Positions 1 through 12,715 of a stretch of DNA of 12,715 nt are shown in pieces. The notes beneath the pieces are model-generated. The model had not been told where the DNA came from. It did no database searches and saw nothing but the letters and a program-made list of their open reading frames with translations. This DNA comes from a virus (Monodnaviria > Loebvirae > Hofneiviricota > Faserviricetes > Tubulavirales > Inoviridae), in IMG/VR virus record IMGVR_UViG_2565956711_000001; one strand, written 5' to 3'. The first letter of the stretch is position 1. The number at the start of each line of letters is the position of its first letter. The translations under genes were made by a program, and so were the position numbers.

Positions 1-297
1 TCACCATTCCTCACGCCTTGCCGGTGAATCAAACTCCTTTTCTACAAAATTTGCAGGGTTTGTATAAGTTGAAAGCGGTGCAGAACTGAGCGAAATCTCC
101 ACCCCTAAAATATTTAACACTTTGTATAGACGCTCAAAACTTGCTTTTGAAGGATTTGACTCAAGGCGAGCATAAGTCTGCTGGGTTATACCCAACATGG
201 CAGATAATTCTCTTTGAGTTAATCCTTTTGATTTACGAAAACCAATTAGAAGTGGACGTAACTGGCTAAGAAGTCTAACGGGAAAAATAGTATCCAT
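1..297 (-). CDS. XRE-family HTH DNA-binding protein, HipB-like antitoxin/regulator (98 aa); any cognate toxin gene would lie beyond the left window edge
   Basis: Complete ORF with ATG at 295-297 and TGA at 1-3. The translation has a Cro/CI-type helix-turn-helix (GLTQRELSAMLGITQQTYARLESNP) and ends in ...EEW, like the C-terminal Trp of E. coli HipB (recalled from memory). No clear Shine-Dalgarno sequence. Confidence 0.55.
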   Translation of the reverse strand: MDTIFPVRLLSQLRPLLIGFRKSKGLTQRELSAMLGITQQTYARLESNPSKASFERLYKVLNILGVEISLSSAPLSTYTNPANFVEKEFDSPARREEW

Positions 298-413
298 AAG
301 TAGGTGGCCATGTCGATTACTTCATAATAAATTCACTCCTCGTAAGAAACAGCCTGTAAGGTGTCTTATTACTTTACAGCTTACAAGGTGTAAGGGTGAA
401 CTCGTTGTATTAA

Positions 414-608
414 CTAATACTGCTCAAATTTTAAAGGTTGCATCTCGCGCTGGCTGGGATTATATTTATTAAGGACTAGCATATAGTGGTGTACGCTGTT
501 ATCCTCTTTGTAATGAGGCTTATCAGTGTGTGAAGGGAGAGGGCGGACTCTGCTTTGCCCTCTCTCTTTCATGGACTTATTTAACTTTAAATGTTTTTTA
601 AAAGTCAT
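414..608 (-). CDS. Small basic hypothetical protein (64 aa), possibly translationally coupled to the upstream gene
   Basis: Its ATG (606-608) overlaps the TGA (605-607) of the 186-aa ORF in an ATGA arrangement. AT-rich; no recognisable motif; could be spurious. Confidence 0.3.
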   Translation of the reverse strand: MTFKKHLKLNKSMKERGQSRVRPLPSHTDKPHYKEDNSVHHYMLVLNKYNPSQREMQPLKFEQY

Positions 609-1165
609 TGCCTTATTGCAATGGTTTTATTAAAAATCCCAATCAATGTGTTTATTTTTTCATTTATCTTAATTTGCTTTTTCTCTTGCTCGAGAGAAAG
701 TTTTCTGAATTCATTTTCCCTGCTCGGCACGGCAATTATCAACTCTTCATAAATCTCCTTTGCTCCTGATACTTTTTCCAACTCGCTGCTGTATTTTTCG
801 ATAAGAGTTCTTATTTGAATATTTACATTTCTGTATTCATGACTGGTAGCACTTAAAACAAGTTGACTGGAATTTTTTTTGGGTGCCTCAATTAACTCTA
901 CGCTTTTCTTTACGACATTGAATTCAGATGTGACTGAGTATACATATTGATACGCGCCTGATTTTCTGACTTTACTCAATAATCCTTTTCTAACTAAACA
1001 CTGAATTTGGTTATAAGCAAAAGCTTTTGCCTTAAAATAACTTTTCGGAAGTGAAAATCGCTCGATAAGAATTTGAGCCACATCGTTACTGGTGAAGTTA
1101 TCTTTAGCAATATAGATTATTGCGGAAAATATGTACGACTCAGCGTTGGATACTCGACTATTCAT
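605..1165 (-). CDS. Hypothetical protein (186 aa), possible winged-helix N-terminal region plus lysine/glutamate-rich C-terminal coiled coil
   Basis: Uninterrupted 186-codon ORF with ATG at 1163-1165, in a markedly AT-rich stretch compared with its flanks. The C-terminus (EKKQIKINEKINTLIGIF) looks coiled-coil. No clear Shine-Dalgarno sequence. Confidence 0.5.
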   Translation of the reverse strand: MNSRVSNAESYIFSAIIYIAKDNFTSNDVAQILIERFSLPKSYFKAKAFAYNQIQCLVRKGLLSKVRKSGAYQYVYSVTSEFNVVKKSVELIEAPKKNSSQLVLSATSHEYRNVNIQIRTLIEKYSSELEKVSGAKEIYEELIIAVPSRENEFRKLSLEQEKKQIKINEKINTLIGIFNKTIAIRQ

Positions 1166-1186
1166 ATGACTAAAACAAGGCAGTTA

Positions 1187-1236
1187 ACTTAGGATTGCTA
1201 AGTATACAACAATGGCAGATACTTAGACAATCTAAG
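1187..1236. promoter_or_regulatory. Divergent promoter region with two palindromic candidate operators (ACTTAG-N5-CTAAGT at 1187..1203; CTTAGA-N3-TCTAAG at 1222..1236)
   Basis: Both inverted repeats were read directly from the sequence. They lie between the divergent starts at 1165 (minus) and 1263 (plus). Confidence 0.4.
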
Positions 1237-1262
1237 CATTCGAGGCCAATGAAGATGAATCA

Positions 1263-1595
1263 GTGTCTGAAAAAAATCCGATACCAGAAAGACTTAAGGA
1301 AGCGAGAAGCAGGGCGGGTTTATCACAGCGCTCATTGGGCCTCCTTGTTGGGTTTGATCCCGCTTCGGCTAGCAGTCGTATGAATCATTATGAGAAAGGG
1401 CGCCATGTCCCCGATATTGATACGCTTCGACGGATGGCGGCAGAGTTAAACGTGCCGTTGAACTACTTTTTTTGTGATGATCAGACCACAGCTGAACTTG
1501 CATTACTCATATCCCGGATGACAGAGGAAGAGCGAAGTAATCTTATCGAAGCACTCAAAAGGCATCCAGGCGAAAAGCATGCTGACAAAAAATGA
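1263..1595 (+). CDS. XRE-family (Cro/CI-type) helix-turn-helix transcriptional regulator (110 aa)
   Basis: The translation contains LKEARSRAGLSQRSLGLLVGF...MAAELNVPLNYFF, a typical HTH_XRE fold signature. The only in-frame start is GTG at 1263, preceded by a weak purine-rich stretch; TGA at 1593-1595. GC content is higher than in the neighbouring AT-rich genes. Confidence 0.7.
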   Translation: MSEKNPIPERLKEARSRAGLSQRSLGLLVGFDPASASSRMNHYEKGRHVPDIDTLRRMAAELNVPLNYFFCDDQTTAELALLISRMTEEERSNLIEALKRHPGEKHADKK

Positions 1596-1799
1596 TATTA
1601 CATATAAAGCGACTGAACTTTTTGAAGGTAACGAAAGTGTAGCATTACACTGATGCAATGAACCAAGCAGGACATTACAGTGGGAGACGCCCTCTCAGAT
1701 AACAAACTCAAAAGAGGGAGCCATAAATATATGTTTATCAATACAACCAGCATTCTGCCGACAACCGGGAAGCTGTCGGCTAAATCTTCCATGTCAGAA

Positions 1800-2234
1800 T
1801 TATGACGACTTATGTAGTTCCCGAATCATATGGTTGGCCAACAGGCTTTCCACCGGTATAACCGAATTGATTTTTACCGCTTTGACAATTTCTATCAACG
1901 AAAGGGTATTTTGCGCTAATTGGTCTCGCAATTCACTTACTTCAGCCTGCAACTGCTGGTTTCTGGCCAGTAAAGCCTGACGGGTTTTGCGGTTGACGTA
2001 TTGCTGTTTTTCTTTTGGGCGTAGATTCAATGGGCCAAGTTGCTGGTCAACATAGGCAGCAATTAGGCGTTTACGCTCTAGGCTGCTCAGCGTACTTAAA
2101 CCACCGTTAACGATACCTTTTGCCTTGAGCCTAATATGCAGGGCCTTGGCGGAAATAGGGGACTTGTCAAAGCCTTCAACCAGCATCAGTTGTAATTCGT
2201 GCTCAATCAGTGTGTTCAGTTCCTTGCCGCGCAT
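1800..2234 (-). CDS. Small coiled-coil protein, fourth gene of the tri-recombinase operon (GinD-like or TnpC-like accessory protein)
   Basis: Its ATG at 2232-2234 overlaps the TGA (2234-2236) of the upstream 788-aa recombinase in an ATGA arrangement. The ORF track starts one codon earlier at TTG 2237. Coiled-coil segment NQQLQAEVSELRDQLAQN. No catalytic motif recognised. Confidence 0.6.
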   Translation of the reverse strand: MRGKELNTLIEHELQLMLVEGFDKSPISAKALHIRLKAKGIVNGGLSTLSSLERKRLIAAYVDQQLGPLNLRPKEKQQYVNRKTRQALLARNQQLQAEVSELRDQLAQNTLSLIEIVKAVKINSVIPVESLLANHMIRELHKSS

Positions 2235-4600
2235 CAATCATTCTCCTGCATCAATTGTTGGTATTCAAGTGCAAAAAGCTGGGCCAGTGTACGGACTTTG
2301 CCCTCGGTGATTACTCCACCAGACAACACACTCTCAGCAGCAACCAGTTGTTGAGTCTTGGCACGACGATGCCATTGTGCTTGTATTGCCTCGAGTTGCT
2401 GTAACCGTCGTTCGATGTCGGCCAGTCTGGTCTGGTAATCAGGCTGATGTTGAGTAAGTTGGGTCAACTTCGAATGTGCTTGCTGTAAAGCCTGTTTTTT
2501 GGCAATCAGATTTGGTAGCTCATCTATCCGGCCTGTCAGCGTGAAATGTTCACAAAAGGCAGCACTCTGGCATTTCAGTCGATAAGGACATCCCCAGAGG
2601 TTAACTTCCCGCATACAGGAGCCAAATTTCAGCGGATACAGCACGGCATGTCTTGCCACCATGTCAGAGGCTTGCTCTGGTCCTTCTGCGTCGCGGATTT
2701 CTTCAAAGGCGGCAGCAACATCTTCAAAGAGGCCGTTAGCAAATGACGCCTCGACAAACCTGGCTACATCATCCCGATCGTCAAAAGTATGCAGGTTGGC
2801 TTTGATGGTATTGTCCAAAGTCATGTGTTCCGTGACCGCCAGTTGGCCGGTCCGTTTGACGATATCCAGTGGCGTAGCAATGGAGGACGAAGAGGGCGAG
2901 ACAGTTAGTGCTGTCGAAATCGGCTGCAAGGGCACCAACGAGGCGGCTTTTCGCCGTTCTGCAAGCGCCAGATGTTGATAATGCTGATTCTGCGTGATGT
3001 CCACTCGACCCATCAACATTGCCTGTAAGTGGTCAGAGATATCCGCAATAGCAAGAAAGGTATTGATGTTGTGCCGGGGAATGTGGGTACGCATCCGCGT
3101 CGAGGTGCCATCCTCCTCCAGTAATTGATATTTGCTGAATACTGATCCATCAGGCTCAACGTTGCCTAAGAATTTATTCATAAGTGTGTTAGTGAAGGGT
3201 ATCGGTGTAGCCAGCAAAGCCAGTGTGCGCTTTAATGCCAGCGAACCCTTCTCGTGTAGAAATAGCAGATCCTCGTAGTTAACTTGGTAGCGTTTGCCAT
3301 TTTCCATCCAGGCGTGTGTACAGGGTTCGTTGGCATTCGCCAGACCAAATTCGGTCTTAATGTAATGATTGAGAGCAGTCTTGGAATAATAGATAGATTT
3401 GCTGTTTTTCGGGCCTGGTATTTCTTGAACGGGCAGCACACCTCTTTTGCTAAGGGCTTTGGATGTTTTGTCCCGTTGTCCTGCCCGGCCCCGAAAACTT
3501 GAGGTAGTTTGGGTGATGTACTTCACCACATCGTCCAGTTCGACTCGTTCACCGGGCATGTTGCTGATGGCCTGTGGCAGGTAATCAGCAAAAGATTTTG
3601 CCCGTAGATAGGTAAGATGGCTGCGTATTGGTGCGGTCAACATTTTAACGGTACTGAATATACTCTCGACCAGCGGTACTGCCAGCGGTTCTACCCAATG
3701 CGTTCGCTCCCCAGCACCTTTGACACCAACATAACGGATACCAAGAAAATAATCGGGTAATCCCTTGTCCTGAAATCGTTTGCAGATTGCCGGATCATCA
3801 ATCTGGCGTTTAAACAGGGCATCCTGTCTGAGATTAAACGCTTCAATGGAGCGAAAGCCGGTAATAACCAATAACAACAGGCAATTTAACGCGATTTTCT
3901 CAGCATCACTTTCCACCCGCTGGATTAATGCAACTATGTTCAGAAATCCGCGAATGGTAATCAACGCATCTTCACCATCGGTAGTGGTATCAGACAGCTT
4001 GGCCTGCTGTTTCAGCGCCATGGTTTCCCGGGCTTTGCGGGTCAAGTTGGTTTTGTTGGTATACTTCACATCAGAGTTGTATTGCAGTTTAACCAACGTA
4101 AATGTGAAGTGATTGACCAATTTTTGAAGGCTAACGCACCGCCCTTTATAGTTAGCTGTATTGGGGTCACTAGGAGATGAAACGCTACTGAGAAGATCCA
4201 TCGCTCGTTGAATGACAACTGTGCTCAGGTAAGATGGATGGGTCTGTCCTGTCTCATAAAGCATCGCATGGTACCATCGTTTCAGAATCATCAAAGTTGC
4301 CTTTGCCACCGCTGGCGACATACTCCTATTTCCCTGTCGGTAAACCACTACCAGCATAGCTTTCATGAACTGACTATATTCTTTGTCGATGGGCAGATGT
4401 TCTACAATACCTTTGAATCTGTTCATCTCATCAAAACGTAATGTATTTCTGCCGTTCCCTCGCAACCATCCACTTCCCTGGTTACCACTTACCCAGATAT
4501 GATCATTCCATGTTTGGGCAAAATCAGCAGACAGGTGCTGTTCGAACCATTTTTTTTGCTCTTCAATAAAAGCCTGAAAATGCTCAAAGTGATTTTTCAT
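2234..4600 (-). CDS. Tyrosine site-specific recombinase, large (788 aa), third of three tandem recombinases (GinC-like), with a C-terminal Cys4 and coiled-coil extension
   Basis: Box I-like arginine in VITGFRSIE. Box II-like HIPRHNINTFLA ... LMGRVDITQNQHY gives the R-H-R-Y catalytic pattern. C-terminal cluster CMREVNLWGCPYRLKCQSAAFC followed by a Q/L-rich coiled coil. ATG at 4598-4600 is preceded by AGGTGA; the start overlaps the upstream gene by 17 nt. Confidence 0.8.
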   Translation of the reverse strand: MKNHFEHFQAFIEEQKKWFEQHLSADFAQTWNDHIWVSGNQGSGWLRGNGRNTLRFDEMNRFKGIVEHLPIDKEYSQFMKAMLVVVYRQGNRSMSPAVAKATLMILKRWYHAMLYETGQTHPSYLSTVVIQRAMDLLSSVSSPSDPNTANYKGRCVSLQKLVNHFTFTLVKLQYNSDVKYTNKTNLTRKARETMALKQQAKLSDTTTDGEDALITIRGFLNIVALIQRVESDAEKIALNCLLLLVITGFRSIEAFNLRQDALFKRQIDDPAICKRFQDKGLPDYFLGIRYVGVKGAGERTHWVEPLAVPLVESIFSTVKMLTAPIRSHLTYLRAKSFADYLPQAISNMPGERVELDDVVKYITQTTSSFRGRAGQRDKTSKALSKRGVLPVQEIPGPKNSKSIYYSKTALNHYIKTEFGLANANEPCTHAWMENGKRYQVNYEDLLFLHEKGSLALKRTLALLATPIPFTNTLMNKFLGNVEPDGSVFSKYQLLEEDGTSTRMRTHIPRHNINTFLAIADISDHLQAMLMGRVDITQNQHYQHLALAERRKAASLVPLQPISTALTVSPSSSSIATPLDIVKRTGQLAVTEHMTLDNTIKANLHTFDDRDDVARFVEASFANGLFEDVAAAFEEIRDAEGPEQASDMVARHAVLYPLKFGSCMREVNLWGCPYRLKCQSAAFCEHFTLTGRIDELPNLIAKKQALQQAHSKLTQLTQHQPDYQTRLADIERRLQQLEAIQAQWHRRAKTQQLVAAESVLSGGVITEGKVRTLAQLFALEYQQLMQEND

Positions 4601-6149
4601 TGGACTTCACCTGTTCCTGATGAAAACGGCAGCGGGCGATAACAGACTCAATTTCAAACTGTGTGGTTTCATGGATTAAAATGAGCGGATTTCGGGAATT
4701 ACCTACACCGTCTGAAATAGCGATTAGTTCATCGACTTCTTTTTTGACGCATTCAAGTAGAGCCTGATGTTCACCATCCGTAAAAGGGCGATAATACAGA
4801 CAGCCGTAACAAGAACGCACTTCGCTGAAAGGGCATGTACTACTGTTCCTGGAGCAACCACCAATTTTATCATGCAACTCGTCACCAACGAGTCCCACCA
4901 CTGGATGGCCTTTCCAATGTGCTGAGTCGACCAGTTCCCCAGTGAGCATCATAGCCACCATATTTTGCCAAACGGGATTCGACCCAAGCGCTTTAGCACG
5001 GATCAAGGCCAACGCGGGAGTTGCCATAATGTAGTATTTAGCTACGGCAAGAGAGGTGTGCCCCAGTACATGTGCTATCTCTTCAGCGCTAGCACCTTGC
5101 ATCGCCAAAGAGTGCCCAACATTGTGGCGTAAATCAGTGGGTGTAATTGTGGGCAATGCAGCTTCGCCACATGCTACGGCGGCTTGATATTCAGGAGGAC
5201 AGAAATTTAGGATTGCCTGATTAATTGCCTGAGACACATAATGCGGAGCTGAAACGCTGAAATCGAATAGTTTATCTTCGGGGTTTTTCTTATATCTCAC
5301 GGTATAGTTCATAATTAACTCCCCAATTTCTGGGGGGATCGCCAGAAATAACCGCTCTGTCGTCACTCGTCTTTGTTTAGCATATGGTAAAAAAACACTG
5401 TATCGAATCAGACCAGATTCCTGATTTCGTGTATCGATACGAACATCTTTGACCGCCAGCCTAGCGAGTTGTACTGGGCGTGCACCCGTTACATAAGCCA
5501 ACCCAAGGATAGCTGCATTGCGCACTTCGCTGTGACTGAAACTTTTGCCATCGCGTAACAACGAAGCCATTTCAAACAGTCCATTGCAAATCATGTTTTT
5601 TTCAAGAGGGTCAAGAATATTATCGATTTCTTGGTAACCCCCCCAATGTTCGAGATACGGTCGAGGGACGAACTCAAGATCATCGTAATCTTCAAGATTG
5701 AAACCTGGGAATGTTTCAGCACAAAGTATTTTTAATCCGAATAACACGGAATAAAAAGTAGCATTATCAATATCCTCTTTTTCGATAAATAATCGGAGCG
5801 TACTAAGCGAAAACCCACCATGTTCTCGACAATATGAAATGATATTCCTCCAATCAAGGTGCAACGCTGGAAGTTTGGTTGGAAATCTCGTCGATGCATA
5901 TTTGAAACAGATATACTTGTTTAATTTATTTGAGATATAATCTTGATTGAAAACAAGATATCGCCGACTGCCTGAATAATCGAAAGTCCATTTATTTCCT
6001 TTGTTAACAATATATTTATCATCAAACTCCATTGCCGTTTTTAGATAAATTCGATCAGGAATATCGAGTTCAAAGATAGCCTTAGCTAAATCAGGAGGGT
6101 AAACTGAGTTCCCTTCGTCAGATTTTAATGCATTATCAAATGATGTCAT
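4584..6149 (-). CDS. Tyrosine site-specific recombinase (521 aa), second of three tandem recombinases (GinB-like)
   Basis: Box I LGLAYVTGARPVQLARL. Box II TDLRHNVGHSLAMQGASAEEIAHVLGHTSLAVAKYY matches the H-x-x-R ... LGH ... Y pattern. C-terminal Cys cluster CSRNSSTCPFSEVRSCYGC. ATG at 6147-6149 overlaps the upstream gene by 14 nt. Confidence 0.8.
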   Translation of the reverse strand: MTSFDNALKSDEGNSVYPPDLAKAIFELDIPDRIYLKTAMEFDDKYIVNKGNKWTFDYSGSRRYLVFNQDYISNKLNKYICFKYASTRFPTKLPALHLDWRNIISYCREHGGFSLSTLRLFIEKEDIDNATFYSVLFGLKILCAETFPGFNLEDYDDLEFVPRPYLEHWGGYQEIDNILDPLEKNMICNGLFEMASLLRDGKSFSHSEVRNAAILGLAYVTGARPVQLARLAVKDVRIDTRNQESGLIRYSVFLPYAKQRRVTTERLFLAIPPEIGELIMNYTVRYKKNPEDKLFDFSVSAPHYVSQAINQAILNFCPPEYQAAVACGEAALPTITPTDLRHNVGHSLAMQGASAEEIAHVLGHTSLAVAKYYIMATPALALIRAKALGSNPVWQNMVAMMLTGELVDSAHWKGHPVVGLVGDELHDKIGGCSRNSSTCPFSEVRSCYGCLYYRPFTDGEHQALLECVKKEVDELIAISDGVGNSRNPLILIHETTQFEIESVIARCRFHQEQVKSNEKSL

Positions 6150-7530
6150 CGTTATATCTATCCATTATAGTATCTAACGTATTATGTAGCGCTGCATTGT
6201 CTTGAATAATTCGTTGGACATTGGCAGCATTAGCCTGCTCAGACAGGAAACGTTTTGCATATAGATCAGGCATTTGACTTGTCGGACTCCATCCCCCCAT
6301 CAGTCGTAGTTCATCTTTAGCTTCTTCCATTATCCCTGAGAGGGAAGGGACTTCAGCAATAAAGTGTGTTTTATTTTGCTGGCTTTTCAAATATTTTAAA
6401 TGCCATATTTTTTGCAATGTCAAAAAGGCCCAAGTATGTCGGGTTGTATGCGGAGTCAATCGTTGCAACGAGTCAGAGTACAACGGTGATTTGTACTCTG
6501 GATATTGGTTAGTGAAGACCTGATCTATTTTCGAAAAAATAGAATGAACTGATGTGTAGGACAAAGGCTTCGCTGACTGTTGACTCGATGTAAAGATGAA
6601 ATCGTGTTTATCAGTTTTTGGTCGAAGCTTTGCTATATAAATGCTTAAAAAAATATAATCCTGCTTATCGAGCTCCAACACACGATTAGCCCATGCATTT
6701 TTGAGAGATGGCGCATTCTTTCTTGGTTCGTATGCCTCGTCGACAGTTGTCACAATCAAACTAAACTTATCACCTTTTAAATTAGGTTTAATTGAGCTGC
6801 ACTCTAACAACAATAGCTCACCTGTTCGTAAACCATAATTTAACAACAGACGAATAATCAAAAAATTGCGGAACTGAAGATGCCCGGAAGGGAAAGGATT
6901 TAGCGGGTTATGCTTTTGGGCAGAAGAGGGGGTTATTATTCCATACAGGCTGAGCACCATTGCCCCAGACAAACTCTGAAATCCTTGGCTGCTGTGACTA
7001 TGTTGCGAAAATTTGTTTGATGTAAGCGTTCGATAATTCTCCCGGCAAAGCTGTAAACGGGTGTGTAAACGCGAAGCCAAAAGTGATAATGCTTTGGGAG
7101 AGTCATCCCGGTATGCAGGTGATATGTAGGTGTTAATCAAAAAAGAAATGAAATGGATCACAGCACGAACTCTAACTGTATGAGTTAAGCTATTGGCTTT
7201 TGTGACTCTCGTTAAAGACAACACATTTGACTGGACGTTGTGGCCATTTTCTAGATACATCCAAAATGCGGGCATTTCACCGACAGCAATGTCTGGATTG
7301 TGGTCAGATGAATAGAAGCTGTAGCAAAACGAGACACCATACTTTTGCCTCCAGAATTCGTAAAAAAACTTCACAGATTGAAGTGAAGCTGACTGTGTGG
7401 ACAATGAGCGGAAAGCCAAATGGTCAATATGGTACCTAAGGGGATACAGCAACGGCAGAGAGGTTTCCAAGTCCATCAGGATCCATCGCCTTTTACGGCC
7501 TGAGATAACCAACTGCTTTAGTGAATACAC
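6136..7530 (-). CDS. Tyrosine site-specific recombinase (464 aa), first of three tandem recombinases (GinA-like)
   Basis: C-terminal LTPHTTRHTWAFL ... LMGGWSPTSQMPDLYAKRF matches the H-x-x-R ... Y catalytic motifs of the integrase family. GTG start at 7528-7530 is preceded by GAGGT about 7 nt upstream. First gene of the operon, reading away from dif. Confidence 0.8.
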   Translation of the reverse strand: MYSLKQLVISGRKRRWILMDLETSLPLLYPLRYHIDHLAFRSLSTQSASLQSVKFFYEFWRQKYGVSFCYSFYSSDHNPDIAVGEMPAFWMYLENGHNVQSNVLSLTRVTKANSLTHTVRVRAVIHFISFLINTYISPAYRDDSPKALSLLASRLHTRLQLCRENYRTLTSNKFSQHSHSSQGFQSLSGAMVLSLYGIITPSSAQKHNPLNPFPSGHLQFRNFLIIRLLLNYGLRTGELLLLECSSIKPNLKGDKFSLIVTTVDEAYEPRKNAPSLKNAWANRVLELDKQDYIFLSIYIAKLRPKTDKHDFIFTSSQQSAKPLSYTSVHSIFSKIDQVFTNQYPEYKSPLYSDSLQRLTPHTTRHTWAFLTLQKIWHLKYLKSQQNKTHFIAEVPSLSGIMEEAKDELRLMGGWSPTSQMPDLYAKRFLSEQANAANVQRIIQDNAALHNTLDTIMDRYNDDII

Positions 7531-7673
7531 AATATTTACCTCAAAATTATCATGGATATGAAGAGAATGTACTCTGTACCTAATGCAAGAAACGAGAGGG
7601 AGATCAGAAATCCTAACGTATTGATTTATCAGTTAGTGGGAGTGTCATATGAACTTATTTACCACAGTAGGTG

Positions 7674-7701
7674 ATTTAACATAATATACATTATGCGCAC
7701 C
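7674..7701 (-). other. dif: dif chromosome dimer resolution site (XerC/XerD target), exact 28-bp match to the E. coli dif sequence as recalled
   Basis: The plus strand reads ATTTAACATAATATACATTATGCGCACC, the reverse complement of GGTGCGCATAA-TGTATA-TTATGTTAAAT (XerC arm, central region, XerD arm). Confidence 0.85.
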
Positions 7702-7986
7702 AGTGCGCAGATACGCCAGAAATCAGCCTGTAACCATCACCACGGCATTAAACGGTCATCGCTGTTACGTTCTTTCGTCTTCGACCGTCAGCCATCCGTA
7801 TCGCTTCTGAATACGCCGGAATGAAAAACAGGCTTTGCAGTGCCGGGAATTATTATGGCTGACGCCATAATGCTGTTTATGTCCTCGCTTCGCTGCGGGG
7901 CTTCCGGCGCTAAGCGCCTCCCATGCCTGACGGCATAAAAACCGGATATGCCGCCACGTCACCGCATGATACGTCCGTCGCCACCA

Positions 7987-9249
7987 TCACCGCGCGCGCT
8001 CCTCGTGGGAACTCGGTGCGTGCGCGGCGCTGGCGCGCCTGACTTTTTTCGCCTGTAACACGACAAGAATATCCGTCTTGTTCTTCTCGTCAGATGAACT
8101 GGTGAGCCAGCCTTTTGGCAGAAAGCTGAACCCGGTATCGGCGTTTGTGACCTTCGATTCAGCCAGGCCACCCAGCAGAATAATATCCCCGTCAGCCGCT
8201 GATACCTCCGTATTCACCTCGCGCTTAATCAGCGTCGGGCTGTTATTCACGCCCGTATCCGTCTTCGCAAAGCTGGAAAGCTGCTGCTTAATCACAAGGT
8301 CAATATTGTCAGTCCGGATTTGCGGTTTCACGTCGAGGATAACGCCACTAGAGCGATATTCAATCGACTGGATCGGCCTGTTGTCGGCGTAGCTCACCTG
8401 ACCCAGCACCGGAACCTCGTTACCGACTGAAAACGTGGCAGATGCGCCATCCTTCACCCTGAGCCGCGGGGAACTGACGACATGAAAACGACTGTCCGTC
8501 CTGAAAAGCTCATACAGCGCATCAAGAGAGCCTGTATTCACCCGGATAAAGTTATCAAAACCGCCAGACGCGCCAATCTGTATATTCAGCTTGCCGGAAA
8601 GCAGCTTCGCCGCCAGTGCCAGCCCGGAACCGTTACGCTCACTGGTCTGAACCTCAAACACGTAAGCTGCGACAATCACTTCTTCAGAGGCAGTATCAAT
8701 CAGCGGTAAAAGCGTCTGCAACCGCTTAATCTCTGACTTCCGGCCATAATAAACCAGCACATCCCCGGTACGGTTCATAAAGTCCGATGCCGTACCCGCT
8801 ACGGCCGCTTCTGGCGATATCTGCCCGGACGGTAACGAGTTACGCTGACTGTTAAACTGCCCGGTAAACTGTCCGGCCAGAATGTCAGACAGATACGCCA
8901 CGGAACGGAAGCGAGGCCGATAAACAAAGGTCTCCTGCGGCGGCACATACACTTTCGGCGTGAACGGCGCCACGTAGTCAATGCCCTGTTTGTTATAAAT
9001 CGCAATGTTCATATTGCCGAGATAGCGCTTAATAAATGCCCGTTCATCGATATCCGGCGTGATACGGAACGTCACCACCTTATCGGATTTGGCAAGCTCC
9101 GGGTCAAGCATAAACGGCTTATCGAACACCTGAACGTAAATCATGTTCAGCGCCTGCGGCAGCGGAACAGCGTTGAGCTCCAGACTGACGCCCTTCGCCA
9201 TAACCAGCCCCGGAACCAGTAAAAAAAGTAAACCTGTTATCAGCTTCAT
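7987..9249 (-). CDS. Filamentous phage pIV-like outer-membrane secretin (420 aa)
   Basis: N-terminal signal peptide (MKLITGLLFLLVPGLVMA). C-terminal secretin-like segment (VVSSPRLRVKDGASATFSVGNEVPVLG ... GDIILLGGL). Its ATG overlaps the Zot/pI stop in an ATGA arrangement at 9246-9249, and it sits immediately downstream of the pI-like gene as in Ff phages. Confidence 0.8.
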   Translation of the reverse strand: MKLITGLLFLLVPGLVMAKGVSLELNAVPLPQALNMIYVQVFDKPFMLDPELAKSDKVVTFRITPDIDERAFIKRYLGNMNIAIYNKQGIDYVAPFTPKVYVPPQETFVYRPRFRSVAYLSDILAGQFTGQFNSQRNSLPSGQISPEAAVAGTASDFMNRTGDVLVYYGRKSEIKRLQTLLPLIDTASEEVIVAAYVFEVQTSERNGSGLALAAKLLSGKLNIQIGASGGFDNFIRVNTGSLDALYELFRTDSRFHVVSSPRLRVKDGASATFSVGNEVPVLGQVSYADNRPIQSIEYRSSGVILDVKPQIRTDNIDLVIKQQLSSFAKTDTGVNNSPTLIKREVNTEVSAADGDIILLGGLAESKVTNADTGFSFLPKGWLTSSSDEKNKTDILVVLQAKKVRRASAAHAPSSHEERAR

Positions 9250-10280
9250 CGTATCGCCCCTGAATAAACCGTCACCGTTTCGCCGTCGATTTCACCCGTC
9301 ATCATCATGCCGTCAAAGCTGAACTGCGAAGCCGGCTCTATACGCAATCTGCCTGACGTGTCTGCAACAACAACCCATGCCTGACCATCGCGTTTAAGCC
9401 GTCCGGCAAGTCGCCATTTGTCCGACACAACGGGCTTAGCTGGCGCGGCAGGTACAAAAGACGCTGAATTATTTGCGGCGGGTAAATCTTTAGTCTGCTG
9501 TTCAGGCTCTGAATTACCGTTTGACGTGAAAAACCAGAACAGATAAAAAATGGCAATTACCGCCAGAATCAGTAACCCGACAGCTTTAAACCACAACATT
9601 TTAGAACTGAAAATATTCTGACGTTTATCGGTGACAAGTTCCCTTCCCTGCCCGTTCTCATGGGATTTATATAGGGGGAATATCGCCTTGTCATATTTAT
9701 TCTGATAACTGTTCGTCAGATTCGACTTAAACAGTTTGATACCCGTAAATACGTCCACACGGTAGCGGTTATGCAGACCCAGCGCCACATGCTTACTCAT
9801 GCGATACGTTGTTTCCACCCGGTCTTTAATGAATCGCGGAAGGTTGGCAACAGACTGATTCATAACCACTAAATCACAGGTTACGCCCGTTTTTTCATCG
9901 GCAAAATGGCGATGTTCTGCAATGAAAGAGCGATGATTTGCAGGAATCCCTTTATCGTTCTCCCATATGCGCCATGCTTCATCAATACAGATTAAATCCC
10001 CCGGACGGCAGAACGTATCATCCGCAATGCCTGAATCCGTTTTGTAGGGAAAGAAATTATCGTTCTGAACGTCTTCATTCTGAACAAGTAAAATTTCACC
10101 AAGTGATTCCCTGTCTGCCTTTTTAATATCAACGCAGTAATCATAAATACTTTGCGTGGCAAGGCCGTAAATATTACTGACAATGCGACGCCCAGCGATA
10201 CAGGCGGGAATAATGACGCTTGCCACCACTTCGTAAGATTTACCGCTTCCGGGAATGCCCACATACGCAGAAATAGCCAT
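9246..10280 (-). CDS. Zot/pI-family filamentous phage assembly ATPase (344 aa)
   Basis: Walker A motif GIPGSGKS near the N-terminus, Walker B-like LICIDEAW, and a single predicted transmembrane helix (AVGLLILAVIAIFYLFWFF) separating the cytoplasmic and periplasmic parts. This is the architecture of Ff gene I and Zot. Confidence 0.85.
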   Translation of the reverse strand: MAISAYVGIPGSGKSYEVVASVIIPACIAGRRIVSNIYGLATQSIYDYCVDIKKADRESLGEILLVQNEDVQNDNFFPYKTDSGIADDTFCRPGDLICIDEAWRIWENDKGIPANHRSFIAEHRHFADEKTGVTCDLVVMNQSVANLPRFIKDRVETTYRMSKHVALGLHNRYRVDVFTGIKLFKSNLTNSYQNKYDKAIFPLYKSHENGQGRELVTDKRQNIFSSKMLWFKAVGLLILAVIAIFYLFWFFTSNGNSEPEQQTKDLPAANNSASFVPAAPAKPVVSDKWRLAGRLKRDGQAWVVVADTSGRLRIEPASQFSFDGMMMTGEIDGETVTVYSGAIR

Positions 10281-10283
10281 AAA

Positions 10284-10571
10284 TTAACCAATCAAAGGAA
10301 TGCGACGAATAATAAAGCGCGTTAACAATGCTGAAAACATCAGTTTAATCCCTTCCGTGACCATAAACAGATTCACGAAATACCATACGCTATCAGGTAG
10401 TGAGGAAAACAACCCGGCAATATCAACAGATTTTGGCAACAGTGACGCCAGAACCGGAACAAACGCCTGTACGACAAAGTACAGGCCAAAAAACAGAATA
10501 AATTTGACAACCACCGTTCGCAGCACAAAACCCAGCGCCACGTTAAAGGCTGAAACCAGAATACCAAACAT
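10284..10571 (-). CDS. Filamentous phage pVI-like minor coat / membrane protein (95 aa)
   Basis: Small, very hydrophobic protein placed between pIII-like and pI-like genes. Strong Shine-Dalgarno sequence GGAGG about 5 nt upstream of ATG at 10569-10571. Confidence 0.6.
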   Translation of the reverse strand: MFGILVSAFNVALGFVLRTVVVKFILFFGLYFVVQAFVPVLASLLPKSVDIAGLFSSLPDSVWYFVNLFMVTEGIKLMFSALLTRFIIRRIPLIG

Positions 10572-10581
10572 AACGCCTCCG

Positions 10582-12465
10582 TCACGCAGTCAGAATGATA
10601 CGCAGCGAAATAATGCCCCAGATAAGCAGGAATACCGCTTTCAGAAGTGGCCTGATTTTTTCCAGAAGCTCGCAGTGAGAATCAATGGAATATTTATTGT
10701 CCCAGAGTTCGAACGACCATACCGGACACTGAACATCCTTCGATGAAATACTCAGGTTTTTAATGTCCGGCATTAATTCTGTAATTGGCTTGAGAATTTC
10801 CTCACCTGTAGGCGGTTTTTCAAGTTCCGGCGATTTAATGCCGGGGTCTTCGCCTAAATCAACAGAAGTATCGGTATCTGTGCCTGTACCAGGGTGTACA
10901 CCTGTATCCGTTCCCGCACCGGGTCTGGCATTAACCCACGACTGAGGAACGACAACCGGACTATAAAGCAAGCCCTTATCAAGTTTTACGCCAACAGCAT
11001 TAGCCGCAGCCGTCAGTTCAGCCGCCGTAAAAGGTTTATCAAGCGGTATCCCCTGATATCCTTCCTGAACAACAGTCTGACCTGCAAGGCCATTAATAAG
11101 ATTAACCAGCGCAGCCGGGTTTAACTGTTCCTCCGGCTTGAAATCTATATTATCAATAACCTCGCCATTAATTACCTGAGGTAAATTTGATGTATCAAAT
11201 TCTGTATTAAAAAATATCTGGTCTTTAACATCCTGAACATCATTCGTCGTTTTATACACGGCCTTCTCAGGGTGGCAAATACTTTTCCACTGCGTTTTGG
11301 GATTATCAGCCGTACTGCCCGGCGCAGGTACTTTCTCGCTTTTACATAAATCCCATGAGTTTTCAAGCGTAACCGTTGTTGTTCCAACAGATAAAACCAC
11401 AGTTACAATCGATGAATATCCACCAAAATAAGGATTCGGCTTTTCATACTGAAAGTCTTTAACGGAAACCGAATAAACCTTAAAATTTCTTGGCATCCTG
11501 ATATGTAAGTTATTGTCGTCAGACGCCTCATGATAAGTCACATTGGAATGAGAATAACCATTAATCGACTTATAAAGCGCAATCATTACCGGATTATCAC
11601 TGACAAGTACAGCATCGCCCTTTGCATCCCTGATATCAGTCGAATAAGGATATTTAGTACCCTTAACTGACACACGATATACATCATTCGGTAATGGCTG
11701 GCTTATCGGCGGTGGTGCATCAATATTGTAATAGGTTGGCGCAATCTGAACAGGTTTAACCTGATGATTATAAGGGCTTATCGAGTCCTGAATATTCTTC
11801 GCAGAAAAGCCAGTAGCATCAGAGGGCAAATAAACAGCAACAGGGCTTTTAGGTGAAGGTGCAACAGAAGAAGTAACAGTAGCGCCATTGGACAAATTAA
11901 GTAAATAAGTTCCATCATCCTGTTTTATTCCACTTGTAATATATTCAACAGCTTTTGCGCCCTGCTTTAAAGCAAGGTCAGCAACGGAAATAACACCCGC
12001 AGCCTGCCCCAGCAATCCCCATGTTGTCTGTCCGGCAGCCATCATATTACTGCCAAAACTTGAAATACCCGTGGATATCGAATCGTCAATTGTATGCTTC
12101 GCAAGGCCATAAGCAGCCGCGAAAACTGACGTTCCGGTGCAAAGCTGAGGATTACCCACTTTCTCGCCACACATGCGGATTGAATCAAAAACGTCAGGAC
12201 GTTCGCGTATAACCTCCGCAGCGACAGCGATACCCGCGCCCATACCGAGAGAACTGGCACCCGTTGCGAATACACGCCCCGCAGATTGAGAAACAACCTG
12301 AGCTTCACGGGTTTCAACCATTTGCTGAATTACACGTCCAAATCCGTCTGCTGTTACTGCATCAGCATGTACACCGGATGAAACCAGTAAAGACAATATA
12401 GTAATACCTAACTTTCCAGACCCTGAATGACCGCCCAGGCGCATAAAAGCCCCCATAAAAAACAC
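10582..12465 (-). CDS. Filamentous phage pIII-like adsorption / minor coat protein (627 aa by ORF track; true start probably the ATG at 12442-12444)
   Basis: Signal peptide (MRLGGHSGSGKLGITILSLLVSSGVHA), a G/T/D/P-rich linker (PGAGTDTGVHPGTGTDTDTSVDLGEDPG) and a C-terminal hydrophobic anchor (LLKAVFLLIWGIISLRIILTA). Sits between pVIII and pVI. The ORF track start at 12465 is GTG; the ATG at 12442-12444 is preceded by a GGGGG purine run. Confidence 0.65.
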   Translation of the reverse strand: MFFMGAFMRLGGHSGSGKLGITILSLLVSSGVHADAVTADGFGRVIQQMVETREAQVVSQSAGRVFATGASSLGMGAGIAVAAEVIRERPDVFDSIRMCGEKVGNPQLCTGTSVFAAAYGLAKHTIDDSISTGISSFGSNMMAAGQTTWGLLGQAAGVISVADLALKQGAKAVEYITSGIKQDDGTYLLNLSNGATVTSSVAPSPKSPVAVYLPSDATGFSAKNIQDSISPYNHQVKPVQIAPTYYNIDAPPPISQPLPNDVYRVSVKGTKYPYSTDIRDAKGDAVLVSDNPVMIALYKSINGYSHSNVTYHEASDDNNLHIRMPRNFKVYSVSVKDFQYEKPNPYFGGYSSIVTVVLSVGTTTVTLENSWDLCKSEKVPAPGSTADNPKTQWKSICHPEKAVYKTTNDVQDVKDQIFFNTEFDTSNLPQVINGEVIDNIDFKPEEQLNPAALVNLINGLAGQTVVQEGYQGIPLDKPFTAAELTAAANAVGVKLDKGLLYSPVVVPQSWVNARPGAGTDTGVHPGTGTDTDTSVDLGEDPGIKSPELEKPPTGEEILKPITELMPDIKNLSISSKDVQCPVWSFELWDNKYSIDSHCELLEKIRPLLKAVFLLIWGIISLRIILTA

Positions 12466-12498
12466 ATAAAATCAAAAAGATATTGAGCCATAAATATA

Positions 12499-12518
12499 AA
12501 GGGGCTGTTACGCCCCTT
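12499..12518 (-). terminator. Rho-independent terminator hairpin downstream of the major coat gene
   Basis: Perfect 7-bp GC-rich stem (AAGGGGC / GCCCCTT) with a 6-nt loop, 12 nt after the pVIII stop, followed on the minus strand by a T-rich run (TTTATATTTAT). Ff phages have a terminator at this position after gene VIII. Confidence 0.5.
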
Positions 12519-12529
12519 ACCTTTATGAA

Positions 12530-12715
12530 TTAAGCGCCACGAACCATACGCAAAATCCAGCGGACACCCGCAGAACCTGCATACAGAACAATAAGAGAAC
12601 CCGCTACCGCCATAATTCCGGTCAGAACGGAACCGAAATTAACGCTGTTAGTCAGTGGCGTAAGGTCAATACCTTTACCACCAACAACATCACCTTCAGC
12701 AGCAAATACGGCAGG
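12530..12715 (-). CDS. Filamentous phage major coat protein pVIII (partial; N-terminus off-window)
   Basis: Hand translation of the minus strand gives ...PAVFA/AEGDVVGGKGIDLTPLTNSVNFGSVLTGIMAVAGSLIVLYAGSAGVRWILRMVRGA*. It has a signal-peptide cleavage context (FA-AEGD, like the Ff mature N-terminus), a hydrophobic core and a basic C-terminus. TAA at 12530-12532. Not in the ORF track because the start lies outside the window. Confidence 0.7.
   Translation of the reverse strand, partial: PAVFAAEGDVVGGKGIDLTPLTNSVNFGSVLTGIMAVAGSLIVLYAGSAGVRWILRMVRGA

Follow-up and report, generated by a model that had tools for sequence, protein, structure and literature searches.

Among the closest described systems are the IMEX elements and the GInts. 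The dif site is among the most conserved non-coding sites of bacterial chromosomes and, to our knowledge, its exploitation by mobile DNA has been thought to run mainly via the host XerCD machinery. IMEX examples are CTX-phi, VGJ-phi, TLC-phi, CUS-1/Ypf-phi and the gonococcal genetic island. Such elements have no recombinase of their own: XerCD crossover takes place in the dif central region, at the borders of these 6 bp, and leaves an Xer site at both ends. A subclass of the IS1202 family also targets XerCD sites (bioRxiv 10.1101/2022.12.17.520857). GInts have been described by Bardaji et al. (2017; PMC5385486), Idola et al. (2023; PMC10214605) and Hochhauser et al. (2023; PMC10121019). Excision and integration of Pseudomonas GInts were experimentally shown to need their own four genes (PMC5385486), and GinC is said to lack either the first Arg (Bardaji et al., 2017) or the catalytic motif (Idola et al., 2023). 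In E. coli, the islands of hotspot #20 (hipA-ydeT) in strains H3 and S43 have been labelled GInt by BLAST (E < 1e-5; Hochhauser et al., 2023). Both GInts and their occupancy of this hotspot are already published.

The window analyzed here (the whole stretch of DNA, 12,715 bp) encodes a similar module. Its ORF list contains four translationally coupled genes on the minus strand, with products of 446/464, 521, 788 and 144/145 aa (Table 1). The order, coupling and similar sizes of these genes are shared with published GInts, as are their position at one island end, their common orientation with overlapping junctions, and the succession of their products (two proteins with integrase domains, then a larger one with a recombinase fold, then a small helical one). 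Also shared are variable cargo from ginD onward, a short AT-rich far end, the absence of conjugation genes, site-specific insertion with short direct repeats and, in E. coli, defence-system cargo and occupation of the hipA-ydeT hotspot. Strain S43 itself carries an end of the present element (H158). The ginABCD architecture proposed in the initial annotation thus agrees with the layout of Bardaji et al. (2017), and membership of the GInts rests on this architecture together with the BLAST-based label given to the same hotspot by Hochhauser et al. (2023). On these sequence criteria, positions 1-7671 constitute that end of a GInt-type integrative island which carries ginABCD. An identical copy in strain EC09 measures 37,673 bp (37.7 kb), carries defence systems and has a far end with 72% A+T in the last 90 nt (hand count); cargo differs among the islands of G5, LD93-1 and E. 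whittamii.

Table 1. Features of the window (positions count from its first letter).
Feature	Position	Strand	Details
HipB-like helix-turn-helix (HTH) protein	1-297	-	98 aa; island DNA, start of variable cargo
186-aa protein, function unassigned	605-1165	-	adjoins HTH gene
Xre/RstR-like HTH regulator	1263-1595	+	110 aa; divergent from ginD
ginD-like small helical protein	1800-2237	-	144/145 aa (145 aa from TTG)
ginC-like large recombinase-fold protein	2234-4600	-	788 aa
ginB-like tyrosine recombinase	4584-6149	-	521 aa; PF00589, 42 bits
ginA-like tyrosine recombinase	6136-7530	-	464 aa from GTG; PF00589, 30.4 bits
ginA-proximal terminal non-coding region	7531-7671	-	element side of putative attL; no K-12 homology left of 7672
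Predicted IHF site	7614-7626	-	AATCAATACGTTA; matches consensus WATCAANNNNTTR; 48 nt after XerD arm
Subterminal motif	7649-7657	-	TAAGTTCAT; TTCAT begins 20 nt after XerD arm
9-bp direct repeat	7672-7680	.	TGATTTAAC; K-12 homology on the island's two sides overlaps by 9 bp
dif	7674-7701	-	GGTGCGCATAATGTATATTATGTTAAAT; 28/28 identical to E. coli dif, 0 mismatches
XerD arm of dif	7674-7684
Central region of dif	7685-7690
XerC arm of dif	7691-7701
Filamentous (inovirus-type) prophage	7702-12715	-	XerC side of dif; outside island
Prophage secretin	7987-9249
Prophage Zot	9246-10280
Prophage DUF2523	10284-10571
Prophage adsorption-like protein	10582-12465		627 aa

The catalytic signature noticed earlier in the three large ORFs is confirmed by alignment, with Arg...(H)xxR...Tyr invariant in each of them. 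In the family alignment the ginA-like protein has invariant R235, R364, W414 and Y424, and the ginB-like protein R224, K258, R341 and Y373, followed by a C-terminal Cys4 cluster (C432, C439, C447, C450). The profile search that had been suggested detects only these two via PF00589, whereas the 788-aa protein has no match in Pfam or NCBIfam and a weak one to PDB profiles (E = 2.4). According to its structure model this ginC-like protein has a tyrosine-recombinase fold, with low model confidence near the tyrosine helix (residues 517-573). Its invariant residues are R250 (TGFRSxE), H506-x-x-R509 (HIPRHNINTF), R532 and Y541; the first Arg, the HxxR pair and the Tyr are invariant across 18 homologues, and a Cys4 cluster is located at C662, C671, C677 and C683. 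In contrast to GinC of published GInts the protein is thus not degenerate, which we treat as a lineage difference and not as an exclusion. The ginD-like protein, initially annotated as a coiled coil, is indeed predicted to be all-helical with a 47-residue helix (residues 74-120; single-sequence model, pLDDT 70), and ginD directly follows ginC in 50/50 related loci searched.

The overlaps of 14 nt (ginA/ginB) and 17 nt (ginB/ginC) are as first described, but the last junction is TTGATG and not literally ATGA. Here, either a TTG start overlaps the TGA stop by 4 nt or an ATG at 2234 overlaps by 1 nt; the latter, with AGGAG 7 nt upstream, is the more likely start on sequence grounds. For ginA, the probable start is the ATG at 7476 (446 aa), according to RefSeq and the family alignment. 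The perfect dif of the initial annotation stands; its distance is 144 bp from the GTG, in line with the spacing of about 145 bp first given, and 198 bp from the likely start, 54 nt farther away.

A perfect dif is not a chance occurrence (0.00 expected, 200 shuffles), and the same site is present in K-12 (L003, 10751-10778). The junctions were resolved by aligning three sequences, including the empty site of K-12 and the EC09 island. K-12 matches the window only at 7672-7702, and homology between K-12 and the left flank in EC09 extends 7 bp into dif. An insertion-free relative, a comparison proposed at the outset, is thereby at hand in K-12, and the genes do not behave as conserved core chromosome. 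The repeat TGATTTAAC comprises 2 bp of flank and the outermost 7 bp of the XerD arm, and recurs at the far end in EC09. Because the island sits between these two copies, the crossover is placed inside the outer half of the XerD arm (core GTTAAAT); the junction comparison maps the exchange within GTTAAATCA, with a single Xer site left. Since dif is intact after insertion (K-12 vs EC09), it reads as the regenerated attachment site on the attL side. Of this repeat, the core GTTAAAT is the portion common to the whole family, at distal ends as well as tandem junctions. The flanking repeat is perfect over 9 bp in E. coli and reduces to the 7-bp GTTAAAT family-wide, slightly shorter than the imperfect 10-17 nt of published GInts. 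The dif-proximal targeting suggested earlier is supported and gains in precision, as the attachment site overlaps the XerD arm itself. We consider it highly probable, judging from these sequences, that a GInt-type island recombines inside the XerD arm of dif by means of its own recombinases.

The location exactly at dif, as for CTX, TLC and CUS-type phages and the gonococcal genetic island, would also suit an IMEX, in which the island carries a dif-like site, host XerCD integrates and excises it and the three recombinases have some other function. On the other side of the same dif lies a true IMEX, the filamentous prophage, and the far end contains a XerD-arm look-alike (ATAAGTTAAAT, 9/11). 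However, on the ginA side the chromosome keeps the four inner nucleotides of the XerD arm (TTAT), and on the far side the element keeps ATAA; this partition, seen in tandem junctions too, places the exchange outside the point of XerD cleavage. At the far junction a Xer site is absent (XerC arm 1/11 by eye), and the crossover is therefore not of the Xer type. The targets used moreover have unrelated XerC arms and central regions, and GInts require their own four genes (PMC5385486), making a XerCD-driven insertion very improbable. What the element shares with IMEX is dif as integration locus, dimer resolution that stays possible and stacking at the same site; it differs by its three recombinases, a crossover in the outer XerD arm and one bounding Xer site instead of two.

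Targeting of the XerD arm is further supported by 47 related loci gathered with a GinC profile, which show the same gene order. Most of them have a Xer site in one orientation approximately 3.0-3.3 kb upstream of ginC. Where enough upstream sequence is available, 33-35/38 loci carry this site just upstream of ginA in the same orientation, as a composite of XerD arm, 20 nt and TTCAT, the hosts being Enterobacterales, Acinetobacter, Psychrobacter, Moraxella, Aeromonas, Vibrio, Photobacterium, Providencia and Shewanella; a recognisable upstream site is absent in three to four loci (L026, L035, L039, L051). Plasmid copies abut Xer-like sites that have only the XerD arm in common. Non-dif Xer sites are occupied in Klebsiella p4710, E. 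coli pT28R-1, the integrated-plasmid region of E47, A. baumannii pABA-2f10, Citrobacter pBM527-1, V. harveyi and P. aeruginosa pSRMPA3860. In the latter, GinC is only 24% identical but keeps R/H/R/Y, and the trio, a putative GInt, is homologous (E = 7e-24). Conjugative plasmids account for 84/113 of those carrying the family.

If adjacency did not reflect targeting, the terminus would merely tolerate or accumulate islands and the operon would be a decaying remnant. Several unrelated mobile elements near dif are in line with this, as is a decayed island end alone beside dif in ~950 E. coli genomes. Yet ~35 species-level loci, and plasmid copies as well, share a junction that is identical to the base pair and has the same orientation, the ORFs are intact with invariant catalytic residues, and one and the same element (GinC 100% identical) resides both at a chromosomal dif and at differing Xer sites of plasmids. 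Plasmid copies and phylogenetic spread also argue against vertical descent from a single ancient insertion. Such a scenario already conflicts with the comparisons made here, and we give it almost no credence.

Both ends of the element contain conserved motifs. The ginA-proximal end is identical where joined to different plasmid Xer sites, and the subterminal motif (family consensus TAASTTCAT) keeps its spacing in essentially all members. An inverted copy, ATGAACT, lies 19 nt inside the far end; the inverted heptamers ATGAACT...AGTTCAT are conserved, with spacings of 19 and 18 nt to the GTTAAAT core, and ATGAACT-N19-GTTAAAT recurs at distal ends or tandem junctions in EC09, E. whittamii, Acinetobacter, Photobacterium and E. 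coli LD93-1. Within tandem arrays, GTTAAAT marks the junctions, which equal the attP deduced from element ends and tandem junctions. A relaxed IHF motif at +47/48 in 15/37 distinct ends, vs 2.5% of random 110-nt windows, suggests IHF binding at the ginA-proximal end. Unlike published GInts, the present lineage features these heptamers and the IHF-like site. The fixed 20-nt spacing to the XerD arm, and this arm being the sole feature common to all target sites, could point to arm-bound host XerD as required partner or landmark for the Gin recombinases. A precedent is the XerC-like protein of Tn6022, which works only with A. baumannii XerD (PMC11014353). This reading is nevertheless unlikely: bound XerD is expected to occlude a crossover within its footprint, and with three catalytically intact recombinases of its own the element needs no fourth catalytic partner. 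XerD bound to the recombined arm, FtsK or IHF may still have a role.

As the junction sequences show, the element brings a half-arm look-alike (ACATAA-GTTAAAT) that stays at the far junction; a complete, functional-looking dif is therefore rebuilt beside ginA, with no second Xer site. In the mechanism we propose, by analogy with Pseudomonas GInts, the three recombinases and GinD would perform integration and excision, and not XerCD. The XerD half-site would serve as a near-universal, selectively frozen attachment site, hence presumably the very broad host range. Conjugative plasmids would carry the element between cells once it has inserted into their Xer sites, and repeated insertion into the regenerated dif could give rise to tandem arrays and to defence islands in the terminus region. 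For the full picture, i.e., a widespread GInt lineage with three intact recombinases exploiting dif in a hitherto unrecognised way, independently of Xer through a half-site that is near-universal on chromosomes and plasmids across Gammaproteobacteria, regenerating dif each time, stacking, shuttling on conjugative plasmids and perhaps competing or cooperating with XerD, we see an even chance.

Published GInt targets are protein-coding genes (ABC transporter, ssb, RNR alpha, HU and others), whereas here the XerD half of dif or plasmid Xer sites is used. A dif/XerD-arm target of GInts was not found in the literature searched; the type of element is known, and its target specificity is new. If true, it would represent a second, mechanistically distinct route of dif exploitation, with own recombinases, a cut in the XerD arm and a rebuilt dif. 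It would explain the E. coli hipA-ydeT defence-island hotspot and the same islands on large resistance and virulence plasmids. It would also provide a concrete pair of attB and attP sites for the three-recombinase (GInt/SE/Tn554-like) machinery, which is poorly understood and in which several recombinases may be needed because the four half-sites clearly differ, and a candidate tool for DNA insertion at a site present in nearly all Proteobacteria. The question is raised whether such elements interfere with chromosome dimer resolution.

The likeness to Tn554 and RIT put forward initially holds as analogy only, and the same applies to SE (strand-biased circularizing integrative elements). SE and Tn554 share multi-recombinase modules, a small coiled-coil helper, translational coupling, target specificity and a possible copy-out mode, which would leave dif untouched. 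However, SE have the order intA-tfp-intB-srap with the large non-catalytic Tfp second, against integrase, integrase, large, small here, and no BLAST-level similarity between SE and GInt proteins has been reported (PMC10214605); Tn554, which occurs in Firmicutes, encodes just two recombinases. RIT (recombinase in trio) and the gamma-mobile-trio GmtXYZ likewise combine three recombinase-related genes in fixed order on a mobile element. RIT proteins are of ordinary size without a fourth gene, in contrast to 446/521/788 aa plus a universally conserved ginD; GmtY (NCBIfam) scores 17.5 bits against a cut-off of 340, and the other window proteins have no Gmt matches. The IS1202 subclass is Xer-independent as well and abuts Xer sites on chromosomes and plasmids, with copies that adjoin, on the XerC side, sites also used by the island family, but it uses an ISNCY-family transposase, makes target-site duplications and takes the opposite arm; it is not a tyrosine-recombinase island.

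The dif neighbourhood holds several unrelated mobile elements. At the other edge of the window, the HipB-like HTH gene belongs to the island cargo and is not the chromosomal hipB. The Xre/RstR-like HTH gene is a frequent, not universal accessory (15 loci), and the 186-aa protein is conserved beside it in enterobacterial members only (9 loci).

The stretch is E. coli DNA: the 29 best matches listed among complete E. coli genomes share positions 1-7700 at 99.8-100% identity, with homology ending at 7700-7705 in every one. [quoted passage not shown] A sigma-70 promoter scan of the minus strand between dif and ginA gave nothing convincing.

The empty site is found in K-12 MG1655, where the order is yneL - dif - hipA and only 7672-7702 is in common with the window. 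Strain EC09 has the island in an identical copy, and there homology to K-12 returns 37.7 kb leftward and extends 7 bp into dif. The comparison with K-12 and EC09 defines the island ends and the target site, and the three junction sequences (see table) thus reveal a 9-bp direct repeat around the island, composed of 2 bp of flank and the outer 7 bp of the XerD arm. At the ginA end dif is reconstituted intact; at the far end only ATAAGTTAAAT is left, i.e., 9 of the 11 XerD-arm positions, and the XerC arm is absent. The initial annotation had raised the possibility that the island targets or exploits the dif-proximal region, which is borne out and sharpened by a repeat that includes part of dif itself. 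At the junctions, TTAT is kept by the chromosome and ATAA by the element, placing the exchange outside the XerD cleavage point. Judged from these junctions, the crossover is of a non-Xer type. Xer-mediated (IMEX) integration of the island is ruled out by the crossover position and the lack of a second Xer site. KOPS polarity is uninformative, as the 37.7-kb island contains a single motif.

Features and junctions at dif and Xer sites (L numbers denote comparison loci)
Feature	Location	Strand or side	Sequence or remark
dif	7674-7701	minus	28 bp, perfect E. coli match; none predicted by shuffles
XerD arm of dif	7674-7684	minus	side toward gin operon
Filamentous-phage genes	7702-12715	right of dif	secretin, Zot, DUF2523, large adsorption-like protein
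attB (empty target)	K-12		CTCAGACA-TGATTTAAC-ATAATATACATTATGCGCACC
Far junction			CTCAGACA-TGATTTAAC-TTATGTTGTGTGAG... (island)
ginA junction			(island) ...CCACAGTAGG-TGATTTAAC-ATAATATACATTATGCGCACC
Plasmid target	Klebsiella p4710		GTGCGCACAA-TCTATC-TTATGTTAAAT
Plasmid target	E. coli pT28R-1		GGTACATATAA-CGAGGA-TTATGTTAAAT; remnant end only, without gin genes
Plasmid-like region	E. coli E47 chromosome		GTACATATAA-CAAAGA-TTATGTTAAAT
ISNCY-family copy	L001 27702-30464 (EC09)		
ISNCY-family copy	L002 about 38141-40205 (G5)		
ISNCY-family copy	L059 1345-4124 (LD93-1)		
ISNCY-family copy	L055 71-1468		
ISNCY-family copy	L053 6400-8904		
ISNCY-family copy	L060 471-1796		

The operon had been read as encoding three recombinases with the R..HxxR..Y signature and one small, helical (coiled-coil) protein. 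Pfam Phage_integrase matches the 464-aa GinA (30.4 bits) and the 521-aa GinB (42 bits). The 788-aa GinC and 145-aa GinD have no Pfam match, in agreement with NCBIfam, and a search of both proteins and of the 186-aa protein against Pfam, NCBIfam and PADLOC likewise returned none. GinC has numerous homologues, every one annotated as hypothetical. Across 18 of them, with identity down to 39%, the alignment contains an invariant box I TGFR250SxE, followed by equally invariant H506-P-R509-H-N-I-N-T-F, LMGR532 and NxHY541xH. The sole match of the GinC profile among PDB sequences is XerD (E = 2.4, non-significant alone), in which H506/R509/R532/Y541 fall on XerD H244/R247/H270/Y279. A phmmer search of GinA and GinB against the PDB yielded nothing useful, and family alignments were built from related loci. 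R235, R364, W414 and Y424 are invariant in GinA (15 sequences, identity down to 29%), as are R224, K258, R341 and Y373 in GinB (19 sequences, down to 34%). GinD follows ginC directly in all 50 related loci searched, and a single-sequence model (pLDDT 70) predicts it to be entirely helical, including a helix of 47 residues. The invariant residues in the three alignments and this helical model uphold the initial reading. C-terminal to the catalytic domain, GinB (residues 432-450) and GinC (662-683) each carry an invariant Cys4 cluster, covered by no family model, which is possibly a zinc-binding module.

The association with Xer sites extends across the family. Scanning one genome per species with the GinC profile yielded 47 loci in Escherichia, Pectobacterium, Enterobacter, Klebsiella, Citrobacter, Providencia, Aeromonas, Shewanella, Vibrio, Photobacterium, Psychrobacter, Acinetobacter and Moraxella. 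Among the 38 loci for which at least 3.4 kb upstream is available, 33-35 have a Xer site immediately ahead of ginA. It is built of a XerC arm typical of the species, a central 6 nt and TTATGTTAAAT, the XerD arm facing ginA in every case. Since a genome normally has one dif, chance adjacency is negligible. At a constant distance of about 20 nt beyond the Xer site, toward ginA, these loci carry a TTCAT motif. Captured far ends have the form ATGAACT-N19-GTTAAAT and are continued by host DNA (EC09, E. whittamii) or, in tandem arrays, by the ginA end of another element (Acinetobacter, Photobacterium, E. coli LD93-1). The attP, the junction of the element ends, can thus be deduced as ATGAACT-N19-GTTAAAT-N18-AGTTCAT with its dyad centre within GTTAAAT; the circle junction would read ...CACACAACATAA-GTTAAATCA-CCTACTGTGG... 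and the empty site reads CTCAGACATGATTTAACATAATATAC. No match in E. coli genomes spans at least 80% of the deduced full-length attP junction; the junction-spanning matches are confined to tandem arrays that share the final ~31 bp of its distal end. In 15 of 37 distinct ends, against a background of 2.5%, an IHF-consensus match, WATCAANNNNTTR, occurs at 47-48 nt from the XerD arm, suggesting that IHF would bind near the ginA end.

Tandem GInts occur at L059 4260-20131 (LD93-1), L038 12358-12415, L039 21123-21179 and L021/L042 (Acinetobacter sp. NIPH 2699). The element at dif is the newer one; after it comes the distal-end-GTTAAAT-proximal-end junction of an older one, which is often IS-truncated.

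Members of the family are also present on 113 plasmids, 84 of them conjugative. One element end (100% identical GinC) adjoins Xer-like sites with unrelated XerC arms and central regions. Relatives are likewise inserted at Xer-like sites in A. baumannii pABA-2f10, Citrobacter pBM527-1 and a V. harveyi plasmid, as well as in a megaplasmid of P. aeruginosa, with a GinC of only 24% identity. The sole feature common to the plasmid targets is the XerD arm.

As read from these junctions, recombination is base-precise and orientation-specific within GTTAAAT(CA) and regenerates dif, the subterminal inverted heptamers are conserved, the regenerated site is reused, and elements have moved between chromosomal and plasmid Xer sites. 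Catalysis would be carried out by GinA, GinB and GinC together with GinD, to judge from Pseudomonas GInts, whose excision and integration need all four genes and involve cuts staggered by 6 nt (PMC5385486). The four half-sites, i.e., the inner side of dif, the variable host flank, the AACATAA side of the element and an element-specific side, would all be different, and may be why several distinct recombinases are required. Host XerD is possibly needed as well, as with the XerC-like protein of Tn6022, which is active only with A. baumannii XerD (PMC11014353), but this is less likely here because the crossover sits under the XerD footprint.

The definition of GInts dates from 2017 (PMC5385486), and their published targets lie within protein-coding genes (ABC transporter, ssb, RNR, HU). 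Idola et al. report them in 7.5% of Escherichia replicons, with dif and Xer unmentioned in the text (PMC10214605); the searched text of their supplements does not contain the protein accessions of this element. In the survey of Hochhauser et al., hipA-ydeT is hotspot #20, with 62 of 783 genomes occupied there; the islands that strains H3 and S43 have in it are classed as CBASS-carrying GInts, dif again being unmentioned (PMC10121019). The Tn6571 papers give no information on the target. Our literature searches found no paper tying GInts or gin genes to dif or Xer, although one may exist in journals beyond those searched. We thus class the element as a known kind, a GInt, with a new target specificity and a catalytically intact GinC. 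Genes similar to ginC are present in 252 of 5,426 complete E. coli genomes, and the cargo of the EC09 island includes Avs2, PDC-S50 and Gabija.

The island contains two genes of the Xre-type HTH class. The first (1-297) is HipB-like without a hipA partner and neighbours Gabija gajB in EC09; it is not the chromosomal hipB, as the real hipBA lies on the opposite side of dif. The second (1263-1595) is RstR-like and, being divergent from ginD and recurrent in 15 related loci, is a candidate regulator of the gin operon.

As many as three different kinds of mobile element border the dif site in the window. On its XerC side, the filamentous prophage (7702-12715) shares 98.7% identity with a tandem pair in strain G5 (L002 22701-38000). 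The match to the second G5 copy begins at 7688, within the dif central region, as expected for Xer-mediated integration. A 148-aa ORF antisense to the phage genes (10300-10746, plus strand) has a low-complexity translation, is unannotated in the G5 record and is probably no gene.

Opposite the GInt, directly on the XerC-arm side of the same dif/Xer sites, an ISNCY-family (ISKpn21-like) transposase gene is found. Across this element, the EC09 matches to K-12 overlap by 8 bp (K-12 10776-10783), an apparent target duplication. These copies fit the IS1202 subclass published as targeting XerCD sites (bioRxiv 10.1101/2022.12.17.520857). The chromosomal copies and that of pT28R-1 come with one to three passenger genes (Shedu SduA, DUF6904, DUF3800 or small ORFs), and the defence-gene passengers may be new.

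A ~76%-identical copy of the first ~85 bp of the ginA-proximal end comes after dif in E. coli UM146 (L052 9001-9113) and ~950 further E. coli genomes; in it, TTCAT has decayed to TTCAC and the IHF-like box is retained. No gin genes accompany it, and all that separates it from the yde fimbrial operon is a hypothetical gene plus one for an SDR oxidoreductase; in those strains it is apparently the fixed remnant of an ancient insertion. In E. coli CX08, the GInt-adjacent site (L057 3147-3174) combines a non-XerC left arm, GCCTTTTGCAA, with a normal centre and XerD arm and has phage-like genes beyond, and looks like a hybrid left behind by another Xer-integrated element.
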